From assembly GCF_036365525.1 (NCBI RefSeq), contig NC_090404.1, forward strand, positions 6,014,001 to 6,078,000: DNA of 64,000 bases, written 5' to 3'. The notes under the pieces were generated by a model. That model worked only from the letters and a program-made list of their open reading frames with translations. It was not told the DNA's origin and made no database searches. The translations under genes were made by a program, and so were the position numbers. This DNA is from Heterodontus francisci. Taxonomy: Eukaryota. Shown here one piece after another: positions 39,932 to 63,652 of this stretch (position 1 is its first letter; the number at the start of each line of letters is the position of its first letter).

Positions 39932-39940
39932 GCCAAATGA
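39932..39940 (+). CDS. IGHM: TM2 exon coding part (AK*)
   Basis: CTCTTTTACAG|GCC AAA TGA, 129 nt after the TM1-B donor. Confidence 0.8.
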   Translation, partial: AK

Positions 39941-40381
39941 TCGATTGGATTTCGGAAGCTGTGGATTTTTCTTTATCAATATTTCTGCATTAAGAATATA
40001 AAATATGTTGTTTTGGTAATTCTCAAAGTTAAATACCTTCAGTTAACCGATCCGAATCCACCGCTGAGACAAAAGGAAAACACAAATTCCAACATTCTGT
40101 TTGAAAAATGTATTCATGTGTGAGATAATCGTAGCTATAATGTTTCACAGTTGCTTGAATATTTCCGATGCATATAAGTAAAGTTTCTCATTGCTTATTT
40201 ATACTTATCCCATTCCCTTTATGGTGAGTCCTTGTTTTCTCTCTCTGGTCTGTTACAGTTGTCCAGAGAGATGGAAGCTCAGCCCGCTTGTATTCTGTTC
40301 TCAATGTGACGCTCAGTTGTTATATTCACTTGGTGTTAACTTTTAAAATTTTCCCTCGGGATTGCTCTCTGTCAAATTGTT

Positions 40382-40387: not shown

Positions 40388-41039
40388 TCTGGAATGGCAA
40401 ATGGGCAAACTTCCATTTTGTGGATTTTTTTTTCTCTCCAAGGCTACTCCTCACTGTTCCATTTTCCCGTTTGCAGTTCACTTTATTTCTCTGCCAGGTA
40501 TTTTTCACCTGCTTTGTTTGAGTAAATTATGAACACAAGTCCCTATTGGTCAATGAGCTAGGGCGCCATTCAATGATCCAACAAAGCAAAGACACCTCCC
40601 CCTTCATGAGTCAGAAGGTGCACAACGAGCAGGCGCACCTCCCAGTCTACTCTGATATTCTACATTGTAGCAGTCAGTATTAAAGAGCAGGGCTCTGATC
40701 CATCACAGCCTGATATAAGGCAGCACATTGCTGATTAAATTTCTATTTATACTGTATCATCAAATATTTACAAGGCAGGCACAGCACAGTTTAGGTGTCG
40801 GATGCAGACACAACTGGAAGCACAAAACCTGGGAGTGATCCCTGGAGACTCGAGCCTATGAGGCACAGAGACACGAACACACATAAAACCTTGGAATGAT
40901 TCATAGAATTTGTACCTGAATTCACGCAGCATTCGCAAAAAGATAGATGGTTTAAAGGTACAAATAGAGGTAAATGGGTACGATCTAATTTCCATGACGG
41001 AAACGTGGCTACAGGGTGACCAAGACAGGGAACTGAATT

Positions 41040-42375: not shown

Positions 42376-44828
42376 ATGAATATTCAAGGATATTCGACAT
42401 TGAGGAAGGACATGTATAAAGGAAAAGGTGCTGGCGTTGCACTGATAATAAGGGCTGTCATCAGTACATGAAAAAGGGAGGGTTTCAGATCGGATGAACA
42501 AAATGTGGACTCTGTTTGGGTGGAGCTAAGAAACAGCAAGGGGCAACAAATGTTGATAGCAGTTGTTTATAGGCCACCAAACAATAGTGGTAGTTTGGTG
42601 CATGGTATTAATCAGGAGATTAGGGAAGCATGTAACATGGGTAGTACAGTAATCTGCATATGGACTGGGTAAATCGAATGAGTACTCATGCTCTGGAGGA
42701 CGAGTTCCTGGAGTGTGTTAGGGATGGTTTTCTGGAGCAATATGTTGAGGACACGACTGGAGAATACGCTATTTTAGATCTATATTATGTAATGAGAAAG
42801 GGTAAATAATAATCTTGTGCAAAAGAAGCTTTACGAATGAGTGACCCTAATATGATAGAATTTTACATTATGTTTGAAAGTGATGTAGTTCAATCTGAAG
42901 ACAGGATGTTAAATTTGAACAAAGGAAATTATGAAGGTATGAGGGACAAATTGGCTGAGTTGGATTGGGAAAATGCATTAGAATGTATGACAGCATATAG
43001 GCAATGGATAGTCTGTCAAGAATGATATAGTTTACAGAAAATATACATTCTTTCAAGGCAGAAAACCCCAAAACTAAAGGCAGTCAACCGTGGCTAACAA
43101 ACGAAGGTAAGGATTGTATAAGATTAAAAGAAAAGGTCTATAAAGTTGTCATAAATAGTAGTAAACTTGAGGATTGGGATGATTTTAAAATATAGCAAAT
43201 GAGGATGAAGAAACTGACAAAGAAAGGGAGAATAGAATATGAATGTAAACTAGCAAAGAACATAAAAACGGACTGCAAAATCTTCTATAGATACGTAAAA
43301 AGGAAACGTTTGGCTAAGACAAATGTGGGTCCATTACAGGTAGGGCCAGGAGAATTTGCAATGGGGAATAGAGAAATGGCAGTGAAGCTAAATGATTACT
43401 TTGTGTCCGTCTTCACTGAGGAAGATACAAGAAATCTCCCAGAATTAAAGATCCAAGGGACTAGGTAAAATGAGGAATTGAAGGAAATTAGTATCAGTAA
43501 GAAGGTTGTAATGGAGAAATTAACTGGGCTGAAGGTTGATAAGTCCCCTGAACCTGATATTCTACATTCCAGACTGTTGAAAGAGGTAGCTATGGAGATA
43601 GTGGATGTATTTCTGATCATCTTCCAAAAGTCTACAGATTCTAGAACTGTTCCTGCAGATTGTAAGGTAGAAAATGTCACTATTTATGAAGTGGATGATT
43701 GACCACTATTTAAGAAGGGTAGGAGAGAGGAAACAGGGAACTACAGACCTGTTAGATTTACATCAGTTGTAGGGAAAATGCTAGACTCTCTTCCAAAGGA
43801 TGTGATAAATGGACACTTGGATAATAATGATCTGGTTGGGCACAGTCAACATGGATTTATGAATGGGAAATCATGTTTGACGAACCTGTTGGAGTTTTTG
43901 GAGGATGTTACTAACAGAATTGATAAAGGGGAGTCGGTAGACGTAGTATAGATGTATTTTCAGAAGGCTTTCGAAAAAGTGCCCCACAGGAGATTGGTTA
44001 GCAAAAATTAAAGCACGTGGGATAGGAGATCGTATACTGGCATGGATTGATTAACAGGCAGAAAACAGAGAGTAGCAATAAACGGGCCATTCTCGCATTG
44101 GCATGCTGTGATGTGGGGAATAAATGTAATATTTCCAAGTTCACGGATGACACAAAACTAGGTGGGAATGTATGCTGTGAGGGAGATGCAAAGCGGCTTC
44201 AAAGGGATTTGGCCAGACTTAGTGAGTAGGCAAGCACATGGCAGATGGAATATAATGTGGAAAAATGTGAGGTTATCCACTTTGATAGGAGGAATAGATG
44301 TGCACAGTATTTCTTAAATTGTAAGAGATTAGAAAGTGTAAATGTACAAAGTGACCTGGATGTCCTCGTCAAAAGTCACTGAAAGCTAACATGCAGATAC
44401 AACAAACAATTAGGAAGGATAATGGCGTGTTAGCCTTTATCGCATGAGGATTTGAGTACAGGAGTAGTGAAGTCTTGCTTCAGTTGTACAGAACCTTGGT
44501 TAGACCTCACCTGGGGTACTGTGTGCAGCTTTGGACCCCTTACCTTAGGAAGGATATTATTGCCAAAATGAGAGTGCAAAGAATGTTCAGCAGATTTGTT
44601 TCTGGGATGGCAGGACTGGCCTATGAAGAGAGATTGGGGAAACTGGGCCTGTATTCTCTAGAGTTTCAAAGAATGATAGGGGATCTCATTGAAACTTACA
44701 AAATACTTAAATGGATAGACAGGGTAGATGTGGGTAAGATGTTTCTGCTGGTTTGTGGAGTCTAGAACCAGGGGACACAATTTCAAAATAAGGGGAAGCT
44801 ACCTAGGACCGAGATGAGGAGAAATGTC

Positions 44829-45040
44829 TTTAGATTTAGATTTAGATTTTTTAGATTTAGAGATACAGCACTGAAACAGGCCCTTCGGCCCACCGAGTCT
44901 GTGCCGACCATTAACCACCCGTTTATACTAATACTACATTCCTACCACATCCTCACCTGTCCCTATATTCCCCTACCACCTACCTATACTAGGGGCAATT
45001 TATAATGGCCAATTTACCTATCAACCTGCAAGTCTTTTGG
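44829..45040 (-). mobile_element. HE1-type SINE 3' fragment with (TTTAGA)n tail nested in CR1
   Basis: Near-identical to 24415-24575. Confidence 0.8.
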
Positions 45041-46199
45041 CTCAGAGGGTTGTGAATCTTTGGAATTCTCTACCCCCAGAGGGCTGTGGAAGCTGAGCCA
45101 TTGAGGATGTTTAAAGCAGAAATTAACAGATTTCTAAATACAAAAGACATAGAGGGATATGGGACAGTGTGGGGAAAAGGGCATTGAAGTGGATGATCGG
45201 CCATTCTGGTATTGAATGGCGGAGCAAGCTCTCTAGGCTGAATAGCCTACTCCTGGTCCTATGTTCCTTTGTCCTCGGTTCATATGTCGCCATATAAATA
45301 CAAATTGTTGATGTCGACATGAGGAAAAACAATTTTATGCAAAGAGCTGTTATGCCTGACAGGGCAGCGGAAGCAGGTTCAAAAGTAACATTCAAAAGTA
45401 CAGATAATTGGATAAATACTTGATGTGCAAAAATAATGTATCGAGCAGACGGTTTGTGTGTGCTCGTTCACATTGTTCCGATCAAGCAGATGTGAGTATC
45501 TTATCGCGGTGGACATTAGGACCCTGCGGCAGCCCATCCGGCGATGCTGTGAAGTCGATTAGACCATCGGCCATGTTTGTGTGTTGGGCTTTGCTCCTGA
45601 AGTCCCCTCTTGCCCTGAGCAGCTCTTCCCTTGTCTCCCTGTCAGTTTCCCGGAGACTTTGACCGCGGCCTGTTCACAGTTTTTATTTGATCAGAGTGGT
45701 TGCTGGCTCGGAGATAGTTTCTACCCAATGAACAGATTCCACAAGGTAGTGACTATGATCTTTCAAAGAAGCCACAAGCACAGAGTTCCCCCAAGATCCA
45801 TTAAGCTTCATCATGTTTCCATTATGCTGGAATGTTTTCTGTCACCATTAACAATTCTGAGCTCCCTGGCGATAGTTAATAGACCCCTCTCAGGCCTCTG
45901 ACTGTAGCCCAGCTCGGGGTGTTTCCATTCACTGACAGAAAGCTCACCACCGACTGGTCTCACAGCACCACTGAGGACAAGTAGAAATCATAGAGTCGTA
46001 GAGTCGTTTCCGGCAGAGAAGGAGCGTGCTCTGCCCATCGAGTCCATGCCAGCACTCCGTGGCGCAATCCAGTCAGTCCCACTCCCCCGCTCGATCCCCG
46101 TTGTGCTGCAAGTTTATTTCCTTCAAGTGTCCGTCCAATTTCCGTTTGACATCATTGCTTGCCTCCGCTTGCACCACCCTCATAGGCAGCGAATTCCGC

Positions 46200-48030
46200 C
46201 ACAAGTAGGGCTCCACTTGCTCCCACAGGAGGAGCTGCATGTAGAGGGGCCTCCCCCTCCCCTCCATCCTGAGGAATAGGGAACTCGTGCCCAGACTTCG
46301 CAGCCTTGATGTTGATGGTGGTAGGAGGAACCTGGGGACCCAGAACAGGAGACAGCTCCCCTCCAACATATGGGCCCTGCACCTCAGGGCCCTGTGTTAC
46401 CTCTGTGGAGGGGTGCCTTCTCCTCTTTTTCCCGCTAGGGCGCAGAGGCTCAGAGACCTCCATGTCATCAGAGGCCTCCGCCTCCGCACCCTCCTTTTTT
46501 TTAGTTACTCTAGGCCTGAGCCCAGCCCTGGGACAGGTGGATTCCCTGGGAGTGGACCTTGGGCTGAGCTCAGGCTCGGGTTGTGTCATGGTGTCCAGGG
46601 GACGAGTCTCTTGATGTTTACATTTCCTCCGCACCTTCCTTCCACTCGGATGGGCACTCACGGAACTGACTGAGCGGTGTCTGTAGGATGTGTGGGGGGA
46701 GTGGGAGGAGGTGCAGTGGCGCCACCCTGGGCCGCCGAGGTCGAGGTGGAGTTGGCGGCCAGGAGGTTGGGGCAGTTCTTATGAACATGCCCCACTGCCT
46801 TACAGACGTGGCACCGCGCCCCGTCCGATGTCCAGAAGACGTGGTAGGCCGTCCCCTGGAACTCTGCATCAAAATGGCCCTCCAAAACCTCCTCCGATGC
46901 CATCTTCATAAATAGCTGGTGATGGAAGGAGTAGACATGTCGGAGGCTGTGCTCCCGAAGACCGAGCGGGATTGGGGTGATCCCCGACCTTACCTCCCCC
47001 AGATGGTGCAGGTGAGGGAGGGGGAGCTCATTGGGAATGAAGGGCGGGACAGTTGATAATATTATCCGCTGTGCAGTGGCCTCCAGAGGGTCCACCGGCA
47101 GGGAAGTCCCACCCACAGTGAGCCTTTTATTCAAACCCAGGGACATGGCCCGTTCGGTCTTCAGGAAGAACACAGCCTTCCCGTACATTTTTGAGGCTGC
47201 CACAATGGCCGAGGGGCCGACAACCTCAGCCATTGCCTTTACACAGGCCTGTATAGACATATTGGGGTGGGGATAGCTCTTTACCCCACGGCTCGAAGCA
47301 ATTAATTTAAAAGGTGAGTGGGTCACACGGGCGGCCATAGAGGCTACAGCCGCATAGGTATGTGAGGGCCCCGCCGCCGGTGATGATAGGATTGCCAAGG
47401 ATTCAAGAGCCAAACCTACCCCCAAATTCCAGGAAAACAAACAAACATTTCCAAGAAAAGTAGATCTGGGGGGAGGCTGAGGGAATACAGGAAAGGGGAA
47501 AGACAGGCTGCAAGCGACAACTTTGATTTTTTTTCCTTAAAGTGTGGTACTCTGAACACTCTAACTACTCCTGGTCTTCTGGTCTTCTGCTTGTGGTTGT
47601 GGGAGGGGTCTTCACCTGGGTCAGCCGAAATCTACCCAGGCACTAGTTAGATCCTTCTGTCTCTATAGCCAGGCAGCTTCAGCTGACCCAGGCTGAGCAA
47701 TTCGGGTGGGGAGGGAGCTTCCTTGTGTCGTCAAATGCAATTGCACAGCTCCCTGCAGAATTGTACAGCGCCACCCCTTGTTATTCCGGCCTCTTCTATC
47801 TCCCACAACAGTCCAAATGAAATAGAAGTCTGGTGCTCGACGTCCACCTCGAAATACAAGCTTATTCCCAAGTCTTTCCTCCTCTGCAACAAAAGTTGTT
47901 CAAAGTTTTTGCAGTTCTCTCCTCAGCTCTCCCTCTCCAGCAGCACCTCAAGCAACTGACTGCAGCACTGTCCGCTGCACCTCGTTGAGACACTCAGCAC
48001 ACTGCAGTCCCAATCAGACAGCAGCCAACC
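46200..48030 (-). mobile_element. Tx1-like (L1 clade) element A: 5' UTR and ORF1 with CCHC knuckle, 3'-truncated
   Basis: GVKSYPHP...AEVVGPSAIVAASKMYGKAVFFL...VPPFIP...CHVCKAVGHVHKNC. Confidence 0.85.
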
Positions 48031-48054
48031 CCATTTTTTTGTTTGTTTTATTTT

Positions 48055-50540
48055 AGCCGGTATGGGAATTGAACCAGTTTTTTTTTCTTCTTTTTCTTTA
48101 AATTTTTCATGTCGAGGGTGCCTTTATTGCTCAGGCCCCCTTTATATACATGCTTATATTTTTAAAATAACTTTATTAAAAACAGAAATAAACAAAAACT
48201 CAAATTAAAATGCCATTTTCGGCGTCGACAATGCATTCCAGTCCCTACGGTGCCCAAGGGTTGCGGAAGGCTTCAAGCGTACCGGCGGACACCACATGCT
48301 CCTTCTCCAGGGACCCGTTAACATTGACTAGACACTCTGTGGCGGCGTATAAAAGTCGGACCCGGGCCACGAAATGTGGCCCGACTCCAAAAGTGCGCAG
48401 AGTCCCAAAAAGGTAGTCGTGATCCACCCTGTCAAACGCCTTCTCCTGATCGAGGGAGAGAAAGCCGAACAACTGTCCAGGTGGATGTTGTCCTGGATGG
48501 ACTGGCCCGGGACAGTGTAGGATTGGTCGGGGTGGATCATGTGGGCCAGCACGGAGCCCAGGAGGGTAGACATAGCCCGAGCAAAAATCTTATAATCCAT
48601 GCTGAGGAGGGAGACCGGACGCCAGTTTTTAAGCAGGCGGAGATTGCCCCTCTTCGGCAGCAGGATGATGACCACCCTGCACCACGATCGCCAGGCTTTC
48701 CCCCAGGACCCGCGCGTAATCGTCCCCCAGGATGTCCCAGAACGCCCTGAGGAACTCCACGGTCAACCCATCCAGCCCTTGTGATTTGTCCCTTGAGAGC
48801 TGGTGGAGGTCACCAGTCAGCTCCGCCAACGTGAGCGGAGCCTCCAATCCTTCGGCGCCCTCCGGGCTGACCTGCAGCAGGTCCTCCCACAAATCTCTGC
48901 ATGCATCCTCACTGGATGGATCCGGAGAGAACAACGCACTGTAATAAGTACGGACCAGGAGGCCCAATCCCTCCAGATCCGTGATGGAGGATCCGTCGTC
49001 GGCCAGCAGCTCAACGAGCTGCAAATGGAACCCCCCGCCATTTTTCCAGAGAGTAGAAGAAGGGTGACGCGCGGTTCAAATCTTCCAGGGTCTGGATCCG
49101 CGACCTCACGAACGCGCCTCGGGACCCGATGAGCTGCAGGTCCCTCAGCGCGCCCTTCTTCTCTTTGTACGCCTGCAGCAGGGCCGGGTCCACGACGGCA
49201 TGATCGTGGCGGGACTCCAGGTCGAGCACCTCGCTCTCAAGGCGCACGATCTCGGCTTCCCGCCTCTTGGTCGACCCCTTCGCGCACTCCTGACAGAAGA
49301 CACGGATGTGAGTCTTGCCCACATCCCACCATAGCCTCAAGGAGGGGAAGCCCCCCTGCTTCCTTCTCCAGTTGGCCCAGAATCGACAGAACGAGTCCCG
49401 AAATCGCTCGTCCTCCAGCAGCCGGTTGTTAAAGTGCCAGTACGTGGGTGCAGGTGGGGAAGGAGGAGCTCACCAGGAATGAAGGGCGGGACGTTGGATA
49501 AAATGACCCTTTGTGCAGTGGCCTCCAGGGGGTCCACTGGCAGAAAGGTCCCACCTACGGTGAGCCCCTTGTTCAGAGCCAGGGACACCGCCCGCTCGGT
49601 CTTCAGGAAAAACACTGCCTTCCCGTACATTTTAGAGGCTGCAACAATGGCCGAAGGGCTGACAACCTCGGCCATTGCTTCCACGCATGCCTCGATCGTC
49701 ATGTTTGGGTGGACGTAACTCTTGACCCCATGCTTCGATGTTATTAATGCAAACGGTGATGGGACAACGGGTGCAGCTGCAGCAGCCGCAGCAGCATATG
49801 TCCGGGAAGGCCCCGCCACCAGCAAAGGAGGGCTTGCCATGGGGTCTAAGAGCCACGTCCACCCCCAAGAAACAAAGCAATTTTACACAATTGAAACAAA
49901 ACAAACAAACTTTAAACAATAGTGGAGTGGGAGTAGAGGAGGATCGGGGTAGGAAGGTAAAGGAAAAAGGGGGGATAGGTGACTGAGGTGACTGATTGGA
50001 GGAAGGGGGACAAAGGCTGAAAGGGATGTTTAATCCAACTGCCAGTTGGAGCACCTTTGTAACAATTAGTCCAAAACTGTTTGTTGTCTTCCAGTTGGGG
50101 GAGGCGTCTTTGCCTGGGATGGCTGGAGCTGCCCGGTACTCTCCTCTTCTGCTTTTAACAAGAAAGTCTTCACCCGGGCAACTCCAGCTGTCCCGAGCAG
50201 GCAGTTGGGGTGGGGAGGGAGCTCCCTGGGTGCAAGCCCCAATACAAATTCAGGGGCCCCTTACTGGATTTGGCAGACCCACCCAAGTCTTCCGGCCTCT
50301 TCTCCCTCCCCCAAACTGTTCAAACTTAAGACTCCTTCAGGTGGCCTGACACCCACCTCTCCAAAACAATTGCAGCCTTTTTTGATGGTTGCTCTCCACT
50401 CTGCATTCACCTCTCTCCACTTTCTCCAATTACTCCAGTCTGCAATCTCCTCTCTCCACTCTGCAGTTGCTGCAGCACTGGTGCAGCTGCTCCCCCTGAT
50501 TGCTGGCAGTAAGTGCTCCAAATTGTCCAGCCAATCCCAG
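48055..50540 (-). mobile_element. Tx1-like element B with two large internal deletions (ORF1 joined to mid-ORF2; RT joined to the C-terminus)
   Basis: ORF1 N-terminus 49445-49840; WHFNNRLL...LWWDVGK, NWRPVSLL.MDYKI and LSLDQEKAFDRVDH; A-rich 3' region. Confidence 0.85.
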
Positions 50541-50665
50541 TGCTGTACCTGTCCTGGGAGTGTTTGATGGGACAGTGTAGAGAGAGATTTACTCTGTATC
50601 TAACCCATGCTGTACCTGCTCTGGGAGTGTGTGATTGAACAGTGCGCAGGGAGCTTTGCTCTCTT
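50540..50665 (+). repeat. Two units of the common shark ~65-bp satellite-like repeat; degenerate reversed units at ~59860-60175
   Basis: TGCTGTACCTGTCCTGGGAGTGTTTGATGGGACAGTGTAGAG...TACTCTGTATCTAACCC repeated. Confidence 0.7.
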
Positions 50666-51029
50666 CTCAGCTCATGACGTTCCCGACTTAAATGCGATAT
50701 ATATATTCTCTCGATATATAGATATATATATCGAGAGAATAATTCTTATATATACTTATATACGTACTGAGGCCGGGAAAGGCGAAATATAAGTAAAGGT
50801 CTGTCCCTTTCTATTGTAAACAGCATTTTCTTCTGTGTGATATAACACACTCACGCTTACATTCATTGTCTTCCTGCTTCCACGGGCACCAGTAGAGTTT
50901 CTTCCTTCCATTTATTTGGTTCAATCCGTCTTTGGTTGATAAGCAGTATCTACCTCCTGTGATGTTCTGGATTCGGTCTCCAATCTTCTCAGATTCGCTC
51001 CGCTCAGCAGGATATTTTGCTTGTTCTTG

Positions 51030-52830
51030 AATGGGATATGAGAGTCTCTGGCACGGCCAACATGTGCTGCCCATCGCGAATTGCCCTTGAGAGGGTGGTG
51101 GTGAGCTACCTTCTTGAACCGCTGCAGTCCATTGGGTGCAGGTACACCCTTAGTGCTATTGGGAGAGAGTTCCAGGATTTTGACCCAGCGACAGTGAAGG
51201 AACAGCAATATAGTTCTAAGTCATAGGAACATAGGAAGATAGGAACAGGAGTAGGCCATTCAGCCCCTCGAGCCTGTCCCGCCATTCGATGAGATCATGG
51301 CTGATCCGCGGCCTAACTCCAGATACCTGCCTTTGGCCCATATCCCTTAATATCTTTGCTTAACAAAAATCTCTCGATCTCAGATTTAAAATTAACAACT
51401 GTTCCAGCTTCAACTGCTGTTTGTGGGAGAGAGTTCCAAACCTCTACCACCCTCTGCGTGAAGAAGTGCTTCCTCATCTCTCTCCTGAACGGTCTAGTCC
51501 TAATTTTTAGACTATGCCCCCTAGTTTTTGAATCTCCAACCAGTGGAAATAGTTTATCTTTATCTAGCCTGTCCTTTCTGTTAATATCTTGAAGACTTCG
51601 ATCAGATCACCCCTTAACCTTCTAAATTGTAGCGAAAACAGGCCTAATTTGTGTAATCTCTCCTCGTAACTTAACCCCTGTTGTCCAGGTATCATTCTTG
51701 TAAACCTACGTTGAACTCCCTCCAAGGCCAATATATCCCTCCTAAGGTGTGGTGCCCAGAACTGCTCACAGTACTCCAAGTGGGGTCTAACCAGGGTTTT
51801 GTACAGCTTCAGCATAACCTATGTGTCAGGATGGCTTGTGGCTCGAAAGGGAACTTGCAGCTGGTGGGGTTCCCATGTGTCTGCTACCAATGGTGGTAGA
51901 GGTCGCGGGTTTGGAAGGTCTTGGCGAAGGAGGCAAGGTGAGTTGCTGCAGTGCATGTTGCAGATGGTACACACTGCTGCCACTATGCGCCGGTGGCCGA
52001 GGGAGTGAATGTTTAAGGTGGTGGACGGGGTGCTGATGAAGCAGGCTGTTCTCTCCTGGATGGTGTCGAGATTCTTGAGTTTTGTCAGAGCTGCACCCAT
52101 TTAGGCAAGTGCAGAGTATTCCATCACATTCCTGACTTGTGCCTTGTAGATGATGGTGGACAGGCTTTGGGGAGTCAGCAGGTGAGTTACTCATCGTAGA
52201 ATTCCCTGCCTCTGATTTGCTCTTTTATCCACAATATTTATAAATCTGGCCCAGTTACGTTTCCTGTTAATGTTAACTCCCAGGATGTTGATAGTGGGGG
52301 ATTCAGCGATGGTGATAACGTTGACTATCAAGGGGAGATGGCTAGATTATCTCTTGTTGTGTGTGCATGGTCATTGCCTGGCATTTGTGTGGTGCGAATG
52401 CTACTAGTCACTTATCAGCCCAAGCCTGGATATTGGCCAGGTCTTGCTGCATATGGACATGGACTGCTTCAGTATCTAAGGAGTCACGAATGGTGCTGAA
52501 CATTATGCAAGCATCAGCGAACATCCCAAATTCTGACCTTGTGATGGAGGGAAGATCACTGATGAAGCAGTGATCGGTGGAAGCAGTGAAGATGGTCGGG
52601 CTTAGGACACAACCCTGCAGACCTCCTGCAGTGATGTCCTGGGACTGAGATGATTGTGTTTTAGCCACCACAACCTGTTGTGCTAGGCATGACTACAACC
52701 AGTGGAGTATTTTGCCCCTACTTCCCATTGACACAATTTTGCTAGGGTTCTTCGATGCCACACTCAGTCAAATGCTGCCAAGGGCACTCACGCCTACCTG
52801 ACTCTGGAAGTCAGCTCCTTTGTCCATGGT
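51030..52830 (-). mobile_element. CR1/L2-group LINE fragment with a nested younger CR1 3' end (51222-51820)
   Basis: QDITAGGLQGCVLSPTIF...MFADAC; nested LVRPHLEYCEQFWAPHLRRD with a repeated-tail 3' end. Confidence 0.8.
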
Positions 52831-53348
52831 CTGTACTGAGTGCTGCTGGAGTGCATAGAGTCTGAAGGAGGGAGTTTGGCAAGGGAGGGGATTTTAAGGG
52901 TTGATCTCTCTAAAGTGTAGTTTTTCTTTACATTTAGCAATTAACTAAAATGATTGTTTAAGTTAAGAGGCAATTTAAGTTTCTTACGGTTTTAAACAGG
53001 GATATATAAGCTCTCTGAGAGTAATAGTCTGTAGATAATTAGGTAGCTAGCTTAAACTGGTATCTGAGCTCTGGCACAACTGACTCGTCATTGCTTTCAG
53101 AGGGATCAATTCAGGGGGGCGCTGAGTGCTGCTTGTCTGCTGGAGTACACAGTGTGAAAAAGGGAGTTTGGTAAGTGAGGGAGTTCCAAATTAATTAAGA
53201 TAAATCAATTTAATTTAATTAACACAATACACATGGCAGGACAGGAGATGTGTCATGGCTGCAGCATGTGGGAGCTCCTGGATGTCACGGCAATCCATGG
53301 CAACCACGTCTGTTGTCCGTGTTTGCGGCTTGACGAGCTTTGGCTCAG
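52831..53348 (+). mobile_element. CR1 5' UTR and ORF1 N-terminal zinc finger, truncated at its 3' side
   Basis: ATG at 53233: MAGQEMCHGCSMWELLDVTAIHGNHVCCPCLRLDELWLR (CxxC...CxxC), abutting IgM intron sequence. Confidence 0.7.
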
Positions 53349-53394
53349 GAAATAGGCACAACCTCTCACTTATTGCTTCAATCTCTCCGCTCAC

Positions 53395-53703
53395 CTTCTT
53401 CCTTGTGGATGGAATCTCTGAGAGGAGTCGGCAGATCCTGATGGCTCACCACACAGTAGAACTCAGCCCCACTCAGCCAGGATTGTGTCGAGATGTTTAC
53501 GGTGCTGATCACACTGTCGGGATCCTCTCCTGGTTGGACGGCAATCTCAGATTTCAAAGGCTTCTGTTCTTGCATCCAGGACACATTGATGCCATAAGGA
53601 GCATTAGACACGACGCAGGTTAAGGTCACCGTCGCCTCCAGTAAGACCTGTTCTATTGATGGTGGCAGTAGTTTAATTACTGGATCATTGCAGGAACAAG
53701 GAA
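53395..53703 (-). CDS. IGHM: Cmu3 exon (locus 2; no Cmu4 downstream)
   Basis: [19 protein letters not shown]...SIHKEE; AG/GT intact; 309 nt. Confidence 0.93.
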
Positions 53704-55314
53704 CTGTAAAACAGAAATAAAAGTCAAACAAAGATTCATCTTCAGAATCAGACACCAATATTCAGCCTTCACTGTCTCTAGGAGAATAAATCAACTTCGA
53801 GATATCGACCTCAAGCTGTTGCTCAAATAATATCGTTTATTGGAAGGACAACAACCTGAAAAGGCTTCCGGGAGATTCTATAACATATACTGTGTACTTG
53901 CACCCTAAGAAGCCTTTATAGGCTTTGAAGCAAGTACCCGCCGTAAAAATCGAATAATTGAGGGAGAAATTGTGTGACGCACGAAACAATGTTTTTTCTG
54001 AAATTCCTGGCGGAACAGGCTCGAGGGGCCGAGTGGCCTACGACTGCTCCTGTTATTTCCGCCCGTTTATCGGGCTTTGCGCTGGATCACATTTCCGTTG
54101 ATTATAATGGCTCTGCCTCCCAAGGACACGAGTTATATATCTAATTCACACTGGCTCAAAACGGGTGTCAAATGAAATTCCGAATTTTAGGCCCAATAGG
54201 AAACAAAGTTAATATTCTGGCGCCTTGTCACGATATTTCGGGTGTTGAAAATATGTTGGAACCAATCAGAGGAGAGGTGGAAGGTCGAGAAAATGCAGTT
54301 TCAGTGAGTCTTTTTGAGGCGGAGAATAACTTTCAATAATGGTGTGAGGCAGTTTGCTAATATATGTCGTGAGGGAGAACTCCTCATGTGTCAATCTCGA
54401 GTCAGAAGGCATTCTGCTCAGAGGGCAGTAATAGAAACATAGGAAAACTGAGAAGGCCATTCAGCCCGTCGAGCTTATTCCACCATTCAATCAGACAATG
54501 GCTGATCTGTATCTTTGTACCGTCTACCCATAGGTAACCCTTAACACCATTGCCTAACTTCAATCTATCAATCTCAACATGAAAATAGTCAATTGATGCC
54601 AAACTTCAAGAGCGAGTTGAGGGAGAGAATTCCAGATTTCCGCTACCCACTGTGTGAATAGCTTTCCCGATATCATCCCTGAATGACATTGGTCTAATTT
54701 GAAGGTTATGCCCCCTTGTTCTGGAGTCGCCCACCAGAGGAAATATTTTTCTCCGTCGACTCCATCAATTCCAGTAAACATCTTAAACACCTCAATTAGA
54801 TCACCCTTTAATCTTCTATACTCAAAGGAATACCAGTTGGGTCAATGAAACCTGTCCTCTTATTTAACCCGTTCAGCCCCACTATCATTCTAGTCAATTT
54901 GTGTTGCATCACTCCCAATGCCAATATATTCTTCTTGAGCTCATGAGTCCAGAATTGAACACAGTTTTCTAAATAGGGAGGATGCTCTTTCTGACACTTG
55001 ATGCCGAGGCTATTACCTGGAAAGGTTTCCAGACACCTATTGCTGCTATCAGCCAAATCACGATAATCCTGATATCAAGGCCACCTCACTCATGAAATGA
55101 CATCAAAGCAGAGGGAAACATTCTTTGGTGATGTGATGACATGTTGAACAGTGAGCAATTCTAATTCAGCACTCACAGCGGATTGAGGCATACAACTACA
55201 CGATGGCGAATTGGAAAAATATTCAGTGCTTTGTAATAATTCCAATAAATTGTTACGTTTGATTATCATTGGAGCACAAAATGATCTGGAACTTCCTGGG
55301 ATTGTGTCTCTTAC

Positions 55315-55632
55315 CCTGAGATCCGGTGATGTTTCGGCTTTGGGTGACCTCTTGATGGGAGACCTGGCAGGTATAGACCGTGTTGGTGAACCATTCCCGA
55401 GCGGGGACTGTCAACCGACTGGTCGCTGAGAAGTTCCCGTTCACTTCACAGGCAGGAGAGGTGACGAAGCCCGAATCCATGGGTTGTCCATCCTTCAACC
55501 AACTCACGGTTATTGACTCTGGATGGAAATCGATGATTGAACACACGACAGTTGCAAATCTGCTGCTTGTGGTTTCTTCACTGGAAGTCTGGGTGAGGAT
55601 AACAGTTGGATGGACGATGTCACCTTGACAAT
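55315..55632 (-). CDS. IGHM: Cmu2 exon (locus 2)
   Basis: [15 protein letters not shown]...ITGSQ; AG/GT intact; 318 nt. Confidence 0.93.
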
Positions 55633-55841
55633 CTTCAAGAAAAACATGTTAGACATTTCTGGAAGAAAGTAATAACTAATGCAAACTATTCTAATAATTT
55701 TACAGGTTCCTTGCTGTCAAGCAGACACTAACTGGAGTTTCCAGGGATCAGAACTGTGCACTATACTCTAAATGTGATATAGCCAAACCTCTACACAAGA
55801 TCACGATAGCTTTTCTGTTTTTCAGTTTCCACAACACTAAC

Positions 55842-56138
55842 CTGGAATTTCCTTGATCCAGAGCGACTCTCCGCGTCGAACCTCGCAGTAGATTTTGCTT
55901 CTTCCCACCTCTGACTCGGTGATGGTTAACTGGCTGCTCAGGGTGTAGGTTCCCTTCTTGTTCAGCACTGACGGATAAGTCTTCAGCCCAGTGGTGATCG
56001 TCTCTTTATCTTTCTTCCAGGAAACGCTGCTGATTTCGGGGATGCAGTCCATCGCCAAACAGCCGTAGGCCATGGAGCCGTCGGTGTTGGGTTGTTCACA
56101 GGAGCACAGGCCGTAAAGTGTTGGGGGAGACGGTGTCG
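55842..56138 (-). CDS. IGHM: Cmu1 exon (locus 2)
   Basis: [16 protein letters not shown]...WIKEIP; AG/GT intact; 297 nt. Confidence 0.93.
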
Positions 56139-59100
56139 CTGGGCAAGAACGACAGATTGAACAAGTTAGACTCTGTGATTCATGATTATTAACCAGACAA
56201 CTCGGAATTTCACTCCAGCTAGAAACTGATTCCAATATCTTCCGCTTAAAACCTTCATCCGCATTTGAGCTTCTATCAGTTCCATCATTTGCTGATCATC
56301 ACATGCCGGTCCCCTGGTCAGGAACACACCTCTCTTTCAGGACCTGTTACATTACAAAAGTAAGAGCCTTTTGACGCCATCTCAGTGAAGTATCTTTTAT
56401 TAGATTAAACTGGAAGTGGAGTTTCCCCGCTAATCCGACCAGTATTTATTTCTGAACCAACAGCACTTCGCCAAAAATAAAACACTCAGCATTTATTAAT
56501 TGCAATTATTGGAAATTTTCTCTCTGCAAATAGCTTGCTGGGTTCCCCCACCCCACCACTCCGTCCCCACCCCCAGCGCCCATCACCCCGCTCCCATCCA
56601 CTTCCCCACCTCCAACCCCCACCCCCCGGAAAATAGCGACTGCTATTTAAAAGTGCCATCTGTTATTCTAATAGGTGCTTATAAAAATGTGCTTAAAACT
56701 CGAAACTTGATTACCAGGCAAAGTAATTCCACTATTTTCTCATAAAAACCTAGAACAAATCCTAGCATGTTCATGACCCAGGCTTATCAAACAATAAAAA
56801 TAATAGCAGAGAAGGAGGCCATTCGGTCCATCAAACCTGTGAAAGATGACTCCAGCGATCCCGCTGACCTTCCAATTCCTAATCTTCTTTTCAAAAGTTC
56901 CATTTTATCCAGCTATTTTAGATTCTATTTACAGCCCTCTTTCTGATAGGACATTCCAGATCCTAACAACCCCCTGTGTAGAAGAGTAGATTCATACCCT
57001 CTTCCTTCATTCTTTTGACGCTGATTTTAAATCAGTGCCCTCCACAGACCAACTCACTGATCTGGGGAAATTGGTTTCTGAATTTCTGTATAAAATATTC
57101 ATTATTCAAAACACCTCTACCAGACTTCATTTTAATCTTCTATGTTCCCATAACAATAAATATCTTTTACAATAAATAGTTGAAGTCTCCTTTAAAATAT
57201 GGACTGAATCATTTAGTACACAGATTTCAGAGGGGAATTTTCCACAACCTAGTTTCTGGAATTAAAACTTTGGACGACTCGGCATTGACTCCAGACTACC
57301 ACTTTCCTTCTCAGTACTTGTGGATTGCGATTTGTGTTCTATCTTTACTGAATGGATCTCTCCCGAGTTTAATTCTCCCTCCAACTCAATTAATAATCCG
57401 AATTAAATCCGATTCCAAAAAATCGGTCATCTGGAATGATGTTCTTGAAAAGGTCCATTTAATTTTTCAAAGTATCTTCCCACCCCTCACCAGTGAGAAC
57501 TGGTGTTGCTGACTGTGCTGTTACAGCCACCTCTTCTTGCTGCTTGCACCGATCATAATGTGATCAGGACAGGCTCCTTCTATAAATATCTGATATTGAC
57601 ATCACTTACACATTATACATCGAGTGAATACATCGAGGTTCCAGGCAAGGAAGGACAAAAGTTCCTGAAGTGTTATTGCTGACATGGTCAACTCTCACTT
57701 CTGGTTTGTGTGGACAATTCAAACACCTGCAATTTATTGATCAGGTATTGAAAGCTCGCTCACCAATATAGTGTAAAAGATTGTCGATGTTGATGGCGCA
57801 GAAGTAGGAGATATGGGCTTTCAAATGGCAAGAGATAATATACCACATAAGAGAACATTTGGAAAATAGAAGCGAATAGATTAAAGGGATGGTGGTTACC
57901 TGCTAAGATATAGGAAGCAAAGAGAGACGGTGAACCAATGCTTTTCTGACTAAAAAGAATTAACTATTGTGATCCCCTTGCTTGGTCAGAGGGTCATTGT
58001 TTTTTTTTGTTAAGTACAATGAGGTGGACTTGAGCACCTGACTACTATATTTAGTAGTCTTTGTACATGGACATCTCTTTGGACTGCCATTGTTCTTAGC
58101 TTTCTCGTGATACATGGATCTATCCTTTATTGGCCCAAATAGGACGATGCCAGACTCACCTGTGTTGAAATCCATCTGCCACAGTTTTGTCCAATCACTT
58201 AATCTGTCAATGTCTCTGTAATTTTATGTGTCCGTCTATACTACTCATTGCACCACCAATCTTTGTGTCATTGATAAACCTGAATTGATGTCGAAGTTCG
58301 AGGATGATACAAAACAAATAGTGAGCAGGATAGTAACAGGGTTCAGGAGGACATAGACAGAGTGGTGAAATGTTCAGTGACACAGTAGATGCAATTTAAT
58401 GCGGATAAGTGTGAAGTGTAATCTGAAGGTAATGTAATCGAAATGGCACTATTTTGAAGGGGGTAAAAAAGTAGAGGGGCCTGAGGTGCATATTCACAAT
58501 GTTATGAAGGCGGTTAAGAAAGCAACTTGGTCTTGTAAAATGGATTATTGAATAAAAAAACAAGGAAGTCAGGTTAAAGCTTTACAAATCACTGATTAGG
58601 CTGGAGTATCTTTTGCACAATTCTGCACATCACACTTCCGGAAGGATGTCACGGCTTTGGGGAGAGTGCAGAGGGAGTTTACCAGGATTATGTCAGAAAT
58701 GAGGGAGTTCAGTTATATAGAGTGATTATACAAGTCGAATTGATCTCATTAGGCGGTCACCGAATAGATATATTCAAAATTTTGGGATGTCTTGATGTAG
58801 CAGATAAGGAGAAATTGTTTCCTCTGGCAAGTGGGTCAGTGGCAAAATAAATAACTGGCAACAAAATGGAGTGTGGGCGGGGTGGTGTCTGCAGAAGGAG
58901 GTTTGTTTACTGATAGACGGTGGTTTTCATAGAACCATAAATTGGCTACAGCACAAAAGGAGACCATACGACCCATCGTATCCATGCAGGCTCACTGCAA
59001 AGTGAGCCCGCATCTGGAATGCACAAGGCAACCGGACACGTCCTCGAAGGAGACTAATTTGCATGGTTATGAGGAAAAAACTGGCTTGTAGGATTAAATT

Positions 59101-62100
59101 GGAGAGTTCTCAGAGCTAACACAGGCTTGACGGACCGAATGGCCGCATTCTGTGCTATAAGATTCTTTGATTCTACCCGACTCAGTAGAATTTGGTTCTT
59201 CCAAATTTAATGGGAGGAAAGGCTTCATTAATTTGAACATCTCTGTGACATACATTTTTATTGCTTGTTATATGAAAGAGGATTTTTAAAATAAGAGGAT
59301 CGGAAGGATTTAGTACAAATGAGTCAATCAGATACTGTCAGAGACTTAAAGCTTATTGTGATTGGCATTGATTTCAGGCTAACTGTATCACTTCAAAAGC
59401 TACCCTCTGCTGTGACCCAGTCCAATAACTGCATCTCACCAGAGTTTATCGCTGCCTGTTACCTTTTGAAAATACTTGAACGAAATAATGGTCTCAAACA
59501 TGAGATTATCATGGTTATTTGGAGCAGGATTCTCGACTTTTCTCCATTTAAATCGCCAAAAGAACTTCCAGCCTCCCATCAGATCAGAACAGGTGCTGTT
59601 CTCTGGAATGTTACAGTCACTTCTTGAAACTGTTTGTTTTGAAAGTTCACTCAAGATCAGGCCAATCTCATTCAGTTCCTATCTGATACTTAACATGTTT
59701 TAAAATTATTAATTCATTAAAACTTGGTTTTGAATGAATAGTAAAATCAATTAATGTGCGTTGTTTCATCTGGGCAATGGAACAATTTATTTTCATATAT
59801 CTGGGTCGAGAACTCACAGTTTATGAGTTAGATGCAGATTAAGGATCTTTGAACATTGTGAGGGAAACACTCAGGTCAGGTACAGGAAAGTTAAGTTATA
59901 GAGTAAAGACCCGCTTGTCCGGCCCTGTCAGGAGCTGTAAGGTCAGACATCGCAAATGTTATATTCCGGGGAAAGCCACCTCTATACTTCACTGTCACTC
60001 TGGGTCAGGTACAGCACTAGTTTAATATAAAATAAAGCTCCCTCTACGCAGTCCCATCAAATACATCCAGGACAACTTCAACCCGGTTTAGATACAGAGT
60101 AATGTCTCCCTCTACACTGTCCACATCAAACAGACCCAGGACCGTTACAGCATGGATTAAATATACAGTAAAGCATTGCCAATCAAATATTCAAGGGAGG
60201 TACATTACTGATTGCAAACTGACCAAAGCTCCTTCCACGTCTGTCTGCCCTGTCTCTGAACTGGCATTACTGATTGTCACAGACTGGAATACTGATCTCA
60301 TTGCTGAGGCGCCTCATCAAACTTAAAGTCAAAATTTCACTTTTCTCCCAGATTCAAGTTTCTTAAATAAATGGATCAAGTTGCACTCCCTGAAATGCAG
60401 GAGAATGAACCAGAAGGTTTACGATCAGTCGGGAGGACTCAGTGAGCAGGCGCACAGGAACAAATGGTGAAACCATGGGGTTCTCAGCAGCTAGATCTGT
60501 TCAATCTGTCAATTTCAATGTGAAATTGCAACCACTCCAAGTCTGTAAGATCTTTGAAATTAAATTGAAATTCATTTCAAAAACTCCCTTCGACTTCCTA
60601 CTGTTTCTTCCTGTGTGGCTGCAATCTTAAAAACATAAGATATAGTTTCCTGTAAAATGAATACATTGAAACAATTTATTTTCAGGAAAATTTGATGTCC
60701 TTAACAGCAGCTCAGTGACAGAGTAAGCATTTAGAAAATTAGGAGACATTTATCTTGCAAACCGATTACCCACTGGTTTGATACAATTTCAGAATTAAAC
60801 GTTACCAAAAAAATAATTGAAGCAATGCTCAAAGTTAATTCATTAAAATCTGCGGCGGCACCTTATCGAGCTGAGAACAGCTGAGTAAGAAATGTATTGT
60901 TCTCAAAATTATTTTTAGACGTAATTCACAATTCTCTCCGGCCCTTGAGATTTTGCACTTATTGGAATCCTGGCAATTATACTACTGAATTGTGGGAGGT
61001 CATTTATGTTTAATGAATTAGCACTATTATATTTTAGGCTAATATCCATGTCAGTTGATTTTATATTGTATTTCTTTTAAAAATAGGTAATATCAATTCC
61101 AGACTTGTTTCTTCCGGGTACCTTGTGAAATAATTGGGTTTTAATTAAATTATTATGACACTTAATCAATATTAAAAAATAATCATATTAATAGATGAAA
61201 ACATTCAGACAAATGTATTACTTTCACTGAAATCGAATCGCAGTTCAATCATTTAAAATGAGCAATAATTTCTACTCCCATCCTGTTTTCTATCTACAAA
61301 CTTGTAAACTGCGCATGTATCTGAATGTGTTGATATATCATGAACTCCATCTATTCTCAGCGAGTATTTCGCATGATGGAATTAGGAGTGGAATATTTTC
61401 AAAATTCCAAGCCTGGCCGGCGTCACATCTCACTAACTGTCGATGGGCTGTAACATTGCTTGTTTGTGAAAGCAGGACTCCTGTATTTTAAATATTATCA
61501 TAAATCTTAACTAGATAAAAAAAAAACTCCCAGGTAGTTTGTCATCACGATGTTTTAATATTTTACGCCCGTAATTAACACAATCCCTGCAAATTAATTG
61601 TTAAACATTTTGTGTTTTTTATTGAAAAAAGTTCCAAAACGATCACTGTCAAACTGGACAAGAACAATTCTTTCAGATCATCTACGGCAGTGAAAATTAA
61701 TGGGAAAATATAGCTGAGATTTTGTTGACCAATTTAACAGTTAAGAATTCAGCATAACTCTCTGGTATAATCTGTTCTTTACCTATAATACTTTCCTATG
61801 TGAAGCACAGTTATCAGAGACAAGATGTTGTTATTAAATTCAAAACTATTAACCTTTTGTAAGTAAATGAATCTGCTTGAATTTCAAGGTGTTATTTGTC
61901 TGTGTCTAGCCTTACACAGTCTGCAACTTTCTTCGATTTAAATAAAATCATCGGAACAATCCTTTGACTGCCAGCGACTTCTACCTCTCAGGAAAATATT
62001 TAACTTAGATTAATGATAATTATCTCGCTATCCAACAACACATGGCATTGAAGGAAGAACATGGTTTGGGCTTCACGCAAAGAATGTAATAACCAGACAG

Positions 62101-62374
62101 ATATATTACTCTGACAAACTGCAATTTACAACTCCTGTTTAAGTTATAAGTAAATACAAGCTGCCATTCCTCTGTTTTAATCAGGAATATACCAATTAAT
62201 TCAAAAGTGCTCATCAAACTGAACACAGCGGTGGAATCAATGTCTTCTTGTTGAAATAATTTCAAGCTAAATTAAAAATTATCGCCAACCCAGAATTGTG
62301 AAAGGCGTTTAATGAATAATGAATCGATGTTAATATTGAAGCATATCTGTTTTCTTTTATTAGGAGATATTGCC
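56139..62374 (-). other. J-C intron of locus 2, homologous to locus 1 ~22110-28558
   Basis: Colinear shared blocks, e.g. GAAGTCGCTGGCAGTCAAA, AAATGACCTCCCACAATTCAGTA, GTTCTGATCTGATGGGAGGCTG. Confidence 0.88.
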
Positions 62375-62387
62375 ATATCTCCTAATA

Positions 62388-63365
62388 TGTTGTTTGTGAT
62401 ATACATTAATGATTTGGAGGAAAGTATAGGTGGTCTGATTAGCAAGTTTGCAGACGACACTAAGATTGGTGGAGTAGCAGATAGTGAAGGGGACTGTCAG
62501 AGAATACAGCAGAATATAGATAGATTGGAGAGTTGGGCAGAGAAATGGCAGATGGAGTTCAATCAGGGCAAATGCGAGGTGATGCATTTTGGAAGATCCA
62601 ATTCAAGAGTGAACTATACAGTAAATGGAAAAGTCCTGGGGAAAATTGATGTCCAGAGAGATTTGGGTGTTCAGGTCCACTGTTCCCTGAAGGTGGCAAC
62701 GCAGGTAAATAGAGTGGTCAAGAAGGCATACGGCATGCTTTCCTTCATCGGGCGGGGCATTGAGTACAAGAGTTGGCAGGTCATGTTACAGTTGTATAGG
62801 ACTTTGGTTCGGCCACATTTGGAATACTGCGTACAGTTCTGGTCGCCACATTATCAAAAGGATGTGGATGCTTTGGAGAGGGTGCAGAGGAGGTTCACCA
62901 GGATGTTGCCTGGTATGGAGGGCGCTAGCTATGAAGAGAGGTTGAGTAGATTAGGATTATTTTCATTAGAAAGACGGAGGTTGAGGGGGGACCTGATTGA
63001 GGTGTACAAAATCATGAGAGGTATAGACAGGGTGGACAGCAAGAGGCTTTTTCCCAGAGTGGGGGTTTCAATTACTAGAGGACACGAGTTCAAAGTGAAA
63101 GGGGAAATGTTTAGGGGGGATATGCGTGGAAAGTTCTTTACGCAGAGGGTGGTGGGCACCTGGAACGCGTTGCCAGCGGAGGTGGTAGACGCGGGCACGA
63201 TAGAGTCTTTTAAGATGTATCTAGACAGATACATGAATGGGCAGGAAGAAAAGAGATACAGAACCTTAGAAAATAGGCGACATGTTTAGAGAGAGGATCT
63301 GGATCGGCGCAGGCTTGGAGGGCCGAAGGGCCTGTTCCTGTGCTGTAATTATCTTTGTTCTTTGT
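62388..63365 (+). mobile_element. Young 5'-truncated CR1 (HER1-like) RT C-terminus with an uninterrupted frame of about 300 codons
   Basis: LFVIYINDLEE...KFADDTKIGG...RPHLEYCVQFWSP...QRVVGTWNALP; 3' tail TCTTTGTTCTTTGT. Confidence 0.93.
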
Positions 63366-63652
63366 CTTCTAATTCAAGTTTCCTTTGTTCCAATTGTATC
63401 TTTGCTAGCAGTACCCTGTCTGGGTCTGCTTCCAACACTGCTTCTGCTTCTAACACTGCTTCTGCTTCGTCAGATTCAAGGGAGAAATGGTTGGCCACTA
63501 GCCTAACGAGTTCAGACTTTCTAGCCTTGCCATGTACAGTGTTCCCACACTGCTCAGCCATTTTTCTCAACTCTTCTGTAGACATTGCTTTTAACTTATC
63601 CCAAGGTCCTTCACCCTGGCTTGGAGAGCTACTCGCTTCAGTGGCAGACATG
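63366..63652 (-). mobile_element. Gypsy/Gmr1-like LTR retrotransposon gag N-terminus (truncated); sequence to 64000 may be leader/LTR
   Basis: MSATE...LKAMSTEELRKMAEQCG...KARKSELVRLVANHF...LAKIQLEQRKLELE resembles fish Gmr1-type gag starts (recalled). Confidence 0.5.

Follow-up and report, generated by a model that had tools for sequence, protein, structure and literature searches.

Why does an immunoglobulin heavy-chain locus keep three open constant exons and none of the exons that follow them in its relatives? The question is raised by a 64,000-nt stretch of horn shark (Heterodontus francisci) DNA (the window), in which an IgM cluster on the forward strand (locus 1) is followed by a second, inverted IgM constant region (locus 2; Table 1). 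We argue that locus 2 is probably a pseudogene of recent origin. It would have been a complete IgM cluster, lying tail to tail with locus 1, until a single germline deletion, as seems likely, took away Cmu4, the tailpiece and the TM exons. Read in this way, locus 2 is an unremarkable gene death among shark IgM clusters, but one that is well resolved and seen at an early stage, and retrotransposon fragments lie at both of its breakpoints.

Table 1. Features of the two IgM loci and of the repeats around them; positions are those of the window.
Feature	Position	Strand	Remarks
Locus 1 leader	19321-19366	+	
Locus 1 germline-joined V-D exon	19497-19824	+	12-RSS 19825-19852
Locus 1 J	20212-20259	+	preceded by 23-RSS 20173-20211
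Locus 1 Cmu1	28559-28858	+	
Locus 1 Cmu2	29073-29390	+	
Locus 1 Cmu3	32616-32924	+	
Locus 1 Cmu4 + secretory tail	33416-33807	+	
Locus 1 TM exon	36323-36450	+	
Locus 1 second TM copy, broken	~39677-39803	+	acceptor changed, frameshifted; short last exon; block 36323..39942
Interval between loci	40400..52830	.	LINE/SINE fragment mosaic, RT matches, no Ig exon
5' part of CR1-like LINE	52830..53349	+	leader + first 39 ORF1 codons; left limit approximate
Two overlapping ATTAAA hexamers	53209..53219	-	~160 nt past read-through stop; candidate cryptic poly(A) signal
Remnant of Cmu3-Cmu4 intron	53349..53394	-	46 nt; contains read-through TGA
Locus 2 Cmu3	53395..53703	-	309 nt, open; Pfam C1-set E 1.8e-10; donor AAG|GTGAGC intact
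Locus 2 Cmu2	55315..55632	-	318 nt, open; Pfam C1-set E 3.4e-20
Locus 2 Cmu1	55842..56138	-	297 nt, open; Pfam C1-set E 1.7e-10
Locus 2 J-C intron	56139..62353	-	homologous to locus 1 22131-28558
Perfect inverted repeat	62358..62387	.	13 bp, 4-nt loop; at 5' junction
Young 5'-truncated CR1	62388..63365	+	RT region open 299 codons; very high depth in DNA runs
Start of dispersed-repeat ORF, gag-like	63352..63651	-	interrupted by CR1, not resumed beyond

The original prediction, made from the sequence, of three open minus-strand exons with intact splice sites proved correct. AG acceptors and GT donors flank all three exons, the phase is 1 throughout, and the 924 coding nt hold no stop, frameshift or splice defect, which in itself counts against a pseudogene. 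The three C1-set exons best match shark Cmu1, Cmu2 and Cmu3, in that order, as an elasmobranch IgM (mu) C region does. The closest relative is horn shark IgM (93%); compared with the horn shark IgM clusters P23088/P23087 and UTD43067.1, locus 2 Cmu1-3 are 88-95% identical in protein and have the same exon phases and the same subfamily marks, namely LCSCEQ and a Cys at the start of both Cmu2 and Cmu3, the retained inter-chain cysteines. Amino acid identity with locus 1 is 85/98 in Cmu1, 96/105 in Cmu2 and 92/102 in Cmu3, and locus 2 belongs to a different subfamily, a point that had been missed. Its private changes include Tyr>Cys in the MDY motif of Cmu1, adjoining the B-strand Cys, and Ile>Thr in Cmu2 at a column that does not vary among 12 other sequences.

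Four types of search across 40400-64000 (tBLASTn with locus-1 Cmu4/tail and TM, tBLASTn with seven queries including six shark heavy chains, a profile HMM built from 11 C-terminal regions, and nhmmer with locus-1 3' DNA) found no Cmu4, tailpiece or TM, in agreement with the claim that none lies on the minus strand up to locus 1; the only matches were cross-hits to Cmu1-3 and repeats. Whereas horn shark IgM chains carry Cmu4 with a tailpiece or TM, locus 2 therefore has neither Cmu4 and a secretory tailpiece nor TM/cytoplasmic exons, as a functional elasmobranch IgM cluster would. No V, J or RSS was found in 56139-64000 or elsewhere in 40400-64000, and the only two RSS in the window with <=3 mismatches are those of locus 1. 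Read-through of the Cmu3 donor gives, as predicted, a peptide ending in GERRD, with a TGA at 53380-53378, six codons past the exon. With no acceptor exon downstream, a transcript would run through the donor to this stop, and ATTAAA within the antisense CR1 could set its end. A scan downstream of Cmu3 gave 25 candidate cryptic acceptors; one, at 45355, would encode 19 residues of hydrophobic character (mean 1.9) and was put down to chance.

How were these exons lost? The two loci are homologous between 22131-32969 (+) and 62353-53349 (-), so that homology ends 46 nt past the Cmu3 donor, close to the predicted 45 bp. There the intron meets a piece of ORF1 (53233-53349), 39 codons of the zinc-finger/leucine-zipper type, cut at the junction. 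These 39 residues have no Pfam match; as an ORF ending at the junction they match five proteins (best E 8.8e-8), four of which extend the match into a leucine zipper missing from this element; by this comparison its ORF1 is of the type with an N-terminal CxxC...CxxC followed by a leucine zipper. Its sequence stops after codon 39, with no esterase domain and no ORF2. A LINE with its 5' end kept and its 3' end missing is the opposite of what a normal insertion leaves. Because this element keeps its 5' end and is cut after 39 ORF1 codons, we conclude that at the 3' end of locus 2 the intron breaks off against a cut element, probably through deletion and not insertion. A simple LINE insertion into intron 3 is rejected on the same ground and because the intron does not resume; a twin-primed insertion also fails, the adjoining LINE (52828-51031) being apparently of another family and the intron again not resuming beyond it. 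The ORF1 domain table of PMC4120745 gives the domain order of vertebrate CR1 zf/lz-esterase ORF1, and by that table the junction element would be CR1-like. Besides the 3' end of the gene, the deletion, with 1 bp of microhomology, would have removed the 3' part of the CR1 and spacer DNA, and so account for the short distance of 13.4 kb between the clusters. Shark genomes hold up to 200 clusters, pseudogenes included, with a spacing of 120 to >200 kb in the nurse shark, according to PMC5192425 (section 6.1).

The 5' end is a breakpoint too, and the original prediction missed that both ends of locus 2 abut truncated repeats. The J-proximal 1870 nt of the locus-1 J-C intron have no counterpart in the window. 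One arm of the inverted repeat at the junction derives from the intron, and the other is likely a fold-back copy. Other copies of the adjoining young CR1 extend 5' at 62388, and the dispersed repeat that it interrupts is presumably an LTR retrotransposon. A second, recent event, a CR1 insertion with deletion and fold-back, would have cut the J-C intron ~1.9 kb short of J. In the interval between the loci lie two related ORF1 pieces, which we take to be Tx1-like.

Four of the 18 listed sequencing runs were used, all from one sample, probably the assembled one. X1 and X2 gave near-identical numbers and are counted as one data set; no run is RNA by record, and X5 and X6 were taken as RNA because they contain spliced Cmu1-Cmu2 and Cmu2-Cmu3 joints. 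A misassembly at 53349, the hazard first raised, is not borne out locally, since an X6 RNA contig (53267-53382) bridges the 3' junction with no difference and with 33 nt on the Ig side. The loss of Cmu4, tail and TM, a disabling lesion for an Ig cluster, is confirmed to that extent. An error over a longer range, in which this junction is real but wrongly placed or oriented with respect to locus 1, or a mis-join in the young repeat has created the 5' junction, we consider distinctly improbable. The interval is repeat-rich, the family has many copies and there is a run of 382 N at 14375-14756, all of which would favor such an error; that no DNA piece among those listed bridges either junction or spans the stretch carries no weight. 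However, the sequence between the loci is free of N, a separate library type bridges the 3' junction, and the 5' fold-back appears to resemble a repair product and not an assembler join.

Alternatively, the 9-kb block might be an orphon, a segmental copy of part of an intact cluster elsewhere, pasted in inverted between repeats, non-functional and never with a V-D-J, Cmu4 or TM of its own at this site. Each end is joined without homology to a truncated repeat, there is no V, J or RSS in 56139-64000, and a recent copy would be expected to have intact exons. Against this, the two ends look like separate events, the 3' end of a young CR1 at one and the 5' end of a CR1 at the other, and the DNA runs give no clear sign of a near-identical donor: seven of the eight X1 pieces listed match with no difference at a depth of 7.8-10.4 (10.4 in bin 61506-61836), weak evidence with no single-copy baseline. 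In-place deletion and a pasted-in copy are not separable on window sequence alone, and we regard the copy as unlikely.

Locus 2 leaves a trace in RNA. In X6 the depth is 42 at the junction against ~1.0x10^6 at 53463 in Cmu3 (~4x10^-5), where paralogous transcripts splice Cmu3 to Cmu4. Because the junction contig is ~15x deeper than the one locus-2 intron piece among those listed in X6 (2.7), the junction is probably transcribed, a point that tells against the pseudogene reading. For a young pseudogene, the absence of a TM exon would mean no B-cell receptor, so that a B cell using locus 2 would likely not be selected, and this fits the trace level. Locus-2 letters are missing from Cmu1 in X6, an observation set aside, as the DNA runs also have no contig there. 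In X5, six of the eight locus-2 intron pieces listed show no differences at a depth of 2.4-4.9, and a seventh, which starts one letter in, is also without differences; they could be DNA or unspliced RNA and were likewise set aside.

The same RNA bears on the suggestion that locus 2 encodes a three-domain, tail-less heavy chain. A V-D-J beyond 64000 would be spliced to Cmu1-3, the donor read through and the message ended at the CR1 poly(A) signal, giving a secreted, non-polymerising chain, F(ab')2-like with one extra domain. The open exons, the inter-chain Cys retained at the start of both Cmu2 and Cmu3, a stop six codons on with ATTAAA beyond it, and the X6 pattern (junction depth 42, depth 0 in a bin inside the Cmu2-Cmu3 intron, locus-2 letters at ~117 at 53585 and 734 at 55572) are all consistent with this. 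However, the signal is minute beside that of Cmu3 and unstranded, and antisense RNA could arise from the CR1 leader, which is directed into the gene; there would be no receptor for selection; an extra Cys lies beside the Cmu1 B-strand Cys; and no such protein appears among 36 and 12 database matches (weak evidence). What stands of the suggestion is the read-through contig, a trace at most, and the window holds no V-D-J to go with it; we think a functional chain very unlikely. Still more doubtful is a rescued, secreted-only "IgM-deltaCmu4", in which an upstream V-D-J, or that of the neighbor brought in by inversional switching in a selected plasmablast, would be placed on Cmu1-3 with the GERRD end and the antisense-CR1 poly(A) signal to make a J-chain-independent, Fc-less antibody. 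Should the trace RNA turn out to be a V-D-J-Cmu1-3 message that is spliced and translated, it would represent an IgM without a tail; we found no report of one in the open-access literature, where several key shark Ig papers are missing.

Known systems offer partial parallels. Duck IgY(deltaFc) is also a heavy chain without the C-terminal constant domains, but there the gene is intact, an alternative terminal exon is used and the membrane form remains, whereas in locus 2 the DNA itself is lost and a membrane form is impossible. A three-C-domain shark chain does exist in the IgM-derived IgM1gj of the nurse shark. IgM1gj, however, lacks Cmu2 and keeps Cmu4 and the tailpiece, the reverse of locus 2; its VDJ is joined and the neonate has it in abundance, whereas no V-D-J accompanies locus 2 in the window. 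Nurse shark IgH pseudogenes (G2C, groups 6-8) are non-functional members of a multi-cluster family (PMC2435157, PMC5192425). Locus 2 is likened to them by that status; its own lesion is the deletion of the 3' part of the gene, with open exons left behind and a convergent cluster only 13.4 kb away. Catshark and bamboo shark likewise have IgM gene models that are incomplete (P0028, P0047), although these may be annotation errors.

The open exons of a pseudogene call for a recent loss. A recent duplication of locus 1 is not the answer, as the introns of the two loci differ by ~19% (1145/6075 sites, 18.8%) and the exons at 58/924. Beyond 0.031 neutral substitutions per site, the exons would have less than a 5% chance of remaining intact, and between the introns of the two loci the figure is 0.22. 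The intact exons thus suggest that constraint was lost recently. Intact exons despite that divergence, together with the clean join to a cut CR1-like element, bear out the idea of a recent truncation. The dN/dS of locus 2 versus locus 1 is 0.45, which counts against a pseudogene but mirrors selection over most of the shared history. Private amino acid changes fall at columns invariant in 12 other sequences in 3/7 cases for locus 2 and 2/22 for locus 1, an excess in the direction that relaxed selection on the locus 2 branch would give, but not significant (p = 0.075).

Finally, could a dead cluster still serve its neighbor? It had been proposed that locus 2 is a donor for gene conversion or switching, that is, a silent template for Cmu exons or an AID-driven switch acceptor by inversion with locus 1. 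Inter-cluster switching is known in the nurse shark and is not unidirectional (review PMC4279169); it is reported (Zhu et al. 2012, as reviewed) for neighboring clusters with homologous J-C introns like those of loci 1 and 2. Fourfold-degenerate sites are less diverged than introns (11/129 vs 18.8%; P = 0.0009), and the exons share identical runs of 117 and 75 bp, which fits homogenization of exons across the family. Yet low synonymous divergence may be family-wide or reflect codon constraint and is no proof of locus 2 as donor; the J-C introns are ~81% identical with no identical run longer than 32 bp; and AGCT/WGCW is not enriched in the locus-2 intron. The one J loose end at Cmu1 among those listed is not the locus-1 J (contigs drop rare forms). 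Switching is reported to join functional clusters >120 kb apart, whereas here no switched transcript appears among the listed ends. The claim thus finds no direct support, and we judge such a role quite improbable. The related claim, that inversion could place the locus 1 VDJ on the locus 2 exons, has the correct geometry in the inverted homologous introns, but the resulting C region would have neither TM nor tailpiece. Since its two C regions can be told apart and face opposite ways at a distance of 13 kb, the pair offers a natural marker of whether inter-cluster switching in sharks can work by inversion.

By sequence, locus 2 reads as a mu C region: across Cmu1-3 it shares 88-95% identity with two horn shark chains, and for Cmu3 the identity to Heterodontus francisci IgM is 93%. 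The original prediction, of three open exons with intact splice sites and of homology to the plus-strand cluster (locus 1) ending about 45 bp past Cmu3, is borne out; the homology extends 46 nt beyond the Cmu3 donor and ends at 53349, where one base is shared across the junction. Of the J-C intron, 6.2 kb is also retained. The predicted lack of Cmu4, tail and TM exons held as well. tBLASTn with locus-1 exons found no Cmu4, tail, TM, V or J in 40400-64000, including no Cmu4/TM match downstream of the locus-2 Cmu3, and the same exon set was absent from this interval in searches by tBLASTn with seven queries, a profile of 11 C-terminal regions and nhmmer. The window holds two RSSs, both of locus 1. 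With no Cmu4, no tail and no TM, locus 2 does not qualify as a functional IgM cluster.

Positions of features at and around the two IgM loci
Feature	Position	Strand	Remarks
Locus 2 Cmu1	56138-55842	minus	open, AG/GT sites
Locus 2 Cmu2	55632-55315	minus	open, AG/GT sites
Locus 2 Cmu3	53703-53395	minus	open, AG/GT sites
Fold-back, 13 bp	62358-62387		meets intron end
Locus 1 V-D to J region	19497-20259	plus	V already joined to D, then 12-bp RSS; J unjoined
Locus 1 TM exon, first copy	36190-36462	plus	open
Locus 1 TM exon, second copy	39543-39942	plus	acceptor changed, frameshift
Locus 1 region without Cmu2/Cmu3 start cysteines	28559-32924	plus	
ORF1-like piece	46658-47536	minus	
ORF1-like piece	49337-49882	minus	
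Inverted repeat, 17 bp, perfect	50704-50741		4-nt loop
33-bp tandem array	1-640 and 815-925		about 19 copies
Run of 382 N	14375-14756		upstream of locus 1

Both ends of this C region are breaks. Leading up to 53349 on the plus strand are a leader and an ORF of 39 codons, which has two CxxC motifs and no Pfam match. Searched against 1.84 billion proteins, this ORF had five matches; three are shark gene models whose other parts are mutually unrelated, and four run on into a leucine zipper exactly where the ORF stops at the locus-2 junction. A zinc finger/leucine zipper ahead of an esterase is described as ORF1 of vertebrate CR1 subgroup 7 (PMC4120745). We therefore infer from this layout and the leucine zipper that the element is a CR1 5' end. 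LINE insertions retain their 3' end, so the 5' end alone points to a deletion after the element's insertion. Further downstream, the Ig intron is not picked up again. At the 5' side, the J-C intron breaks off near 62370, which leaves it 1870 nt short of where J lies in locus 1. Beyond the fold-back there lies a 5'-truncated CR1 that is young, as its RT region has an open frame of 299 codons and its depth in the DNA runs is about 10^6. Its 3' end cuts an ORF, which we take to be gag-like, found also in two unrelated H. francisci gene models and thus a dispersed repeat. This ORF is not resumed across the CR1, implying DNA loss at this side also; in mammals, deletions have been described where LINEs inserted.

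We compared contigs of four of the 18 sequencing runs listed, all four from one sample, over 52900-62800 (X1 and X2 are DNA; X5 and X6 were taken as RNA by the spliced Cmu joints in them). A local misassembly at 53349 is refuted by an X6 contig that spans 53267-53382 with zero differences, at depth 42 and with 33 nt on the Ig side. Among the pieces listed, no DNA piece bridges either junction. The single locus-2 intron piece listed in X6 has a depth of 2.7, with 5 of 30 bins empty, so the junction is probably transcribed. Its signal is about 4x10^-5 of the Cmu3 depth at 53463 (about 1.0x10^6), summed contig depth being a poor measure of expression; the contigs do not reveal the strand, and the leader of the CR1 is directed into the locus 2 gene. 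Paralogous transcripts splice Cmu3 to Cmu4, and the J loose end at Cmu1, among those listed, is not the locus-1 J. DNA depth is about 190-500 at exon positions versus 7.5-10.4 for the intron pieces listed, which suggests tens of close Cmu copies and is not a copy number.

A locus-2 transcript would be spliced from Cmu1 through Cmu3 and, with no Cmu4 acceptor, read through to a peptide ending GERRD-stop; it could terminate at ATTAAA near 53215. The predicted product would lack the last Fc domain, tailpiece and membrane anchor. Lacking a membrane form of the receptor, a B cell could not undergo selection through this gene, which fits the trace RNA. The prediction also envisaged recombination between the two J-C introns, inverting the interval and placing the locus-1 VDJ on locus-2 C exons. 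The geometry allows this, and switching between clusters is reported in the nurse shark (PMC4279169), but the longest identical run common to the two introns is 32 bp, they show no excess of AGCT/WGCW, and inversion would leave locus 1 with a tail-less product. The reciprocal direction would be the more useful of the two, as a locus-2 V-D-J, if existing, would gain the full locus-1 C region.

Locus 2 did not arise as a recent copy of locus 1: their aligned introns show 1145 differences in 6075 sites (18.8%), and the repeat insertions are particular to each locus. The exons differ at 58 of 924 sites (6.3%), with a dN/dS of 0.45. Named horn shark chains are nearer to locus 2 than to locus 1 in all six exon comparisons, placing locus 2 in their subfamily. 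Fourfold sites differ less than introns (11 of 129; P = 0.0009), which fits homogenisation of exons, or synonymous constraint, within the family and shows no direction. The clusters lie 13.4 kb apart; nurse shark spacing is given as 120 to over 200 kb (PMC5192425).

Loss of constraint at locus 2 is recent, unless conversion repaired the exons. Under a model that takes the nonsense fraction and the rate of frame-breaking indels in the introns (59 per about 1290 substitutions), the chance that all three exons remain intact drops below 5% once neutral substitutions exceed 0.031 per site; at half the intron divergence, it is 3x10^-5. Three of seven residues private to locus 2 fall at columns invariant in 12 other sequences, one being a Tyr>Cys change next to the Cmu1 B-strand cysteine; the contrast with locus 1 (2 of 22) is not significant (p = 0.075).

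Overall, locus 2 is quite probably a non-functional remnant, in-place deletion and pasted copy taken together; we favor a remnant of in-place deletion, with some reserve, and think a pasted copy unlikely. It fits the known class of IgH cluster pseudogenes (PMC2435157; PMC5192425). It does not belong with IgM1gj, the nurse shark IgM-derived gene with three C domains, which lacks Cmu2 and retains Cmu4, whereas locus 2 has Cmu2 and lacks Cmu4. We found no Cmu4-less shark IgM in a collection of open-access papers that leaves out several primary shark Ig papers.

Locus 1 is a complete cluster, with leader, V-D exon, 12-bp RSS, 23-bp RSS and J, Cmu1-4, secretory tail and TM. Its open V runs into D-derived sequence about 320 bp from the unjoined J, so it is partly joined in the germline, and one recombination step would complete joining; partly joined clusters are known in sharks (PMC5192425). 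It lacks cysteines at the Cmu2 and Cmu3 starts that are present in locus 2 and in the horn shark IgM chain P23088, and at columns that are otherwise invariant it carries Gly>Arg and Glu>Lys; locus 1 may represent a divergent subfamily, or may be in decay itself. Its two TM copies are 77% identical, with 35 copies of a 66-bp tandem repeat lying between them; the short exon that follows the first would encode KTER-stop in place of the usual two residues.

Between the loci, the two ORF1-like pieces, presumably Tx1-like, share 77% DNA identity; their ORF1 parts have no Pfam match, and one is followed by an internally deleted RT region. The inverted repeat lies in an AT-rich stretch between repeats. 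Among public shark gene models, several (P0016, P0017, P0021, P0022) have retrotransposon ORF pieces called as start or end exons, likely annotation artefacts.
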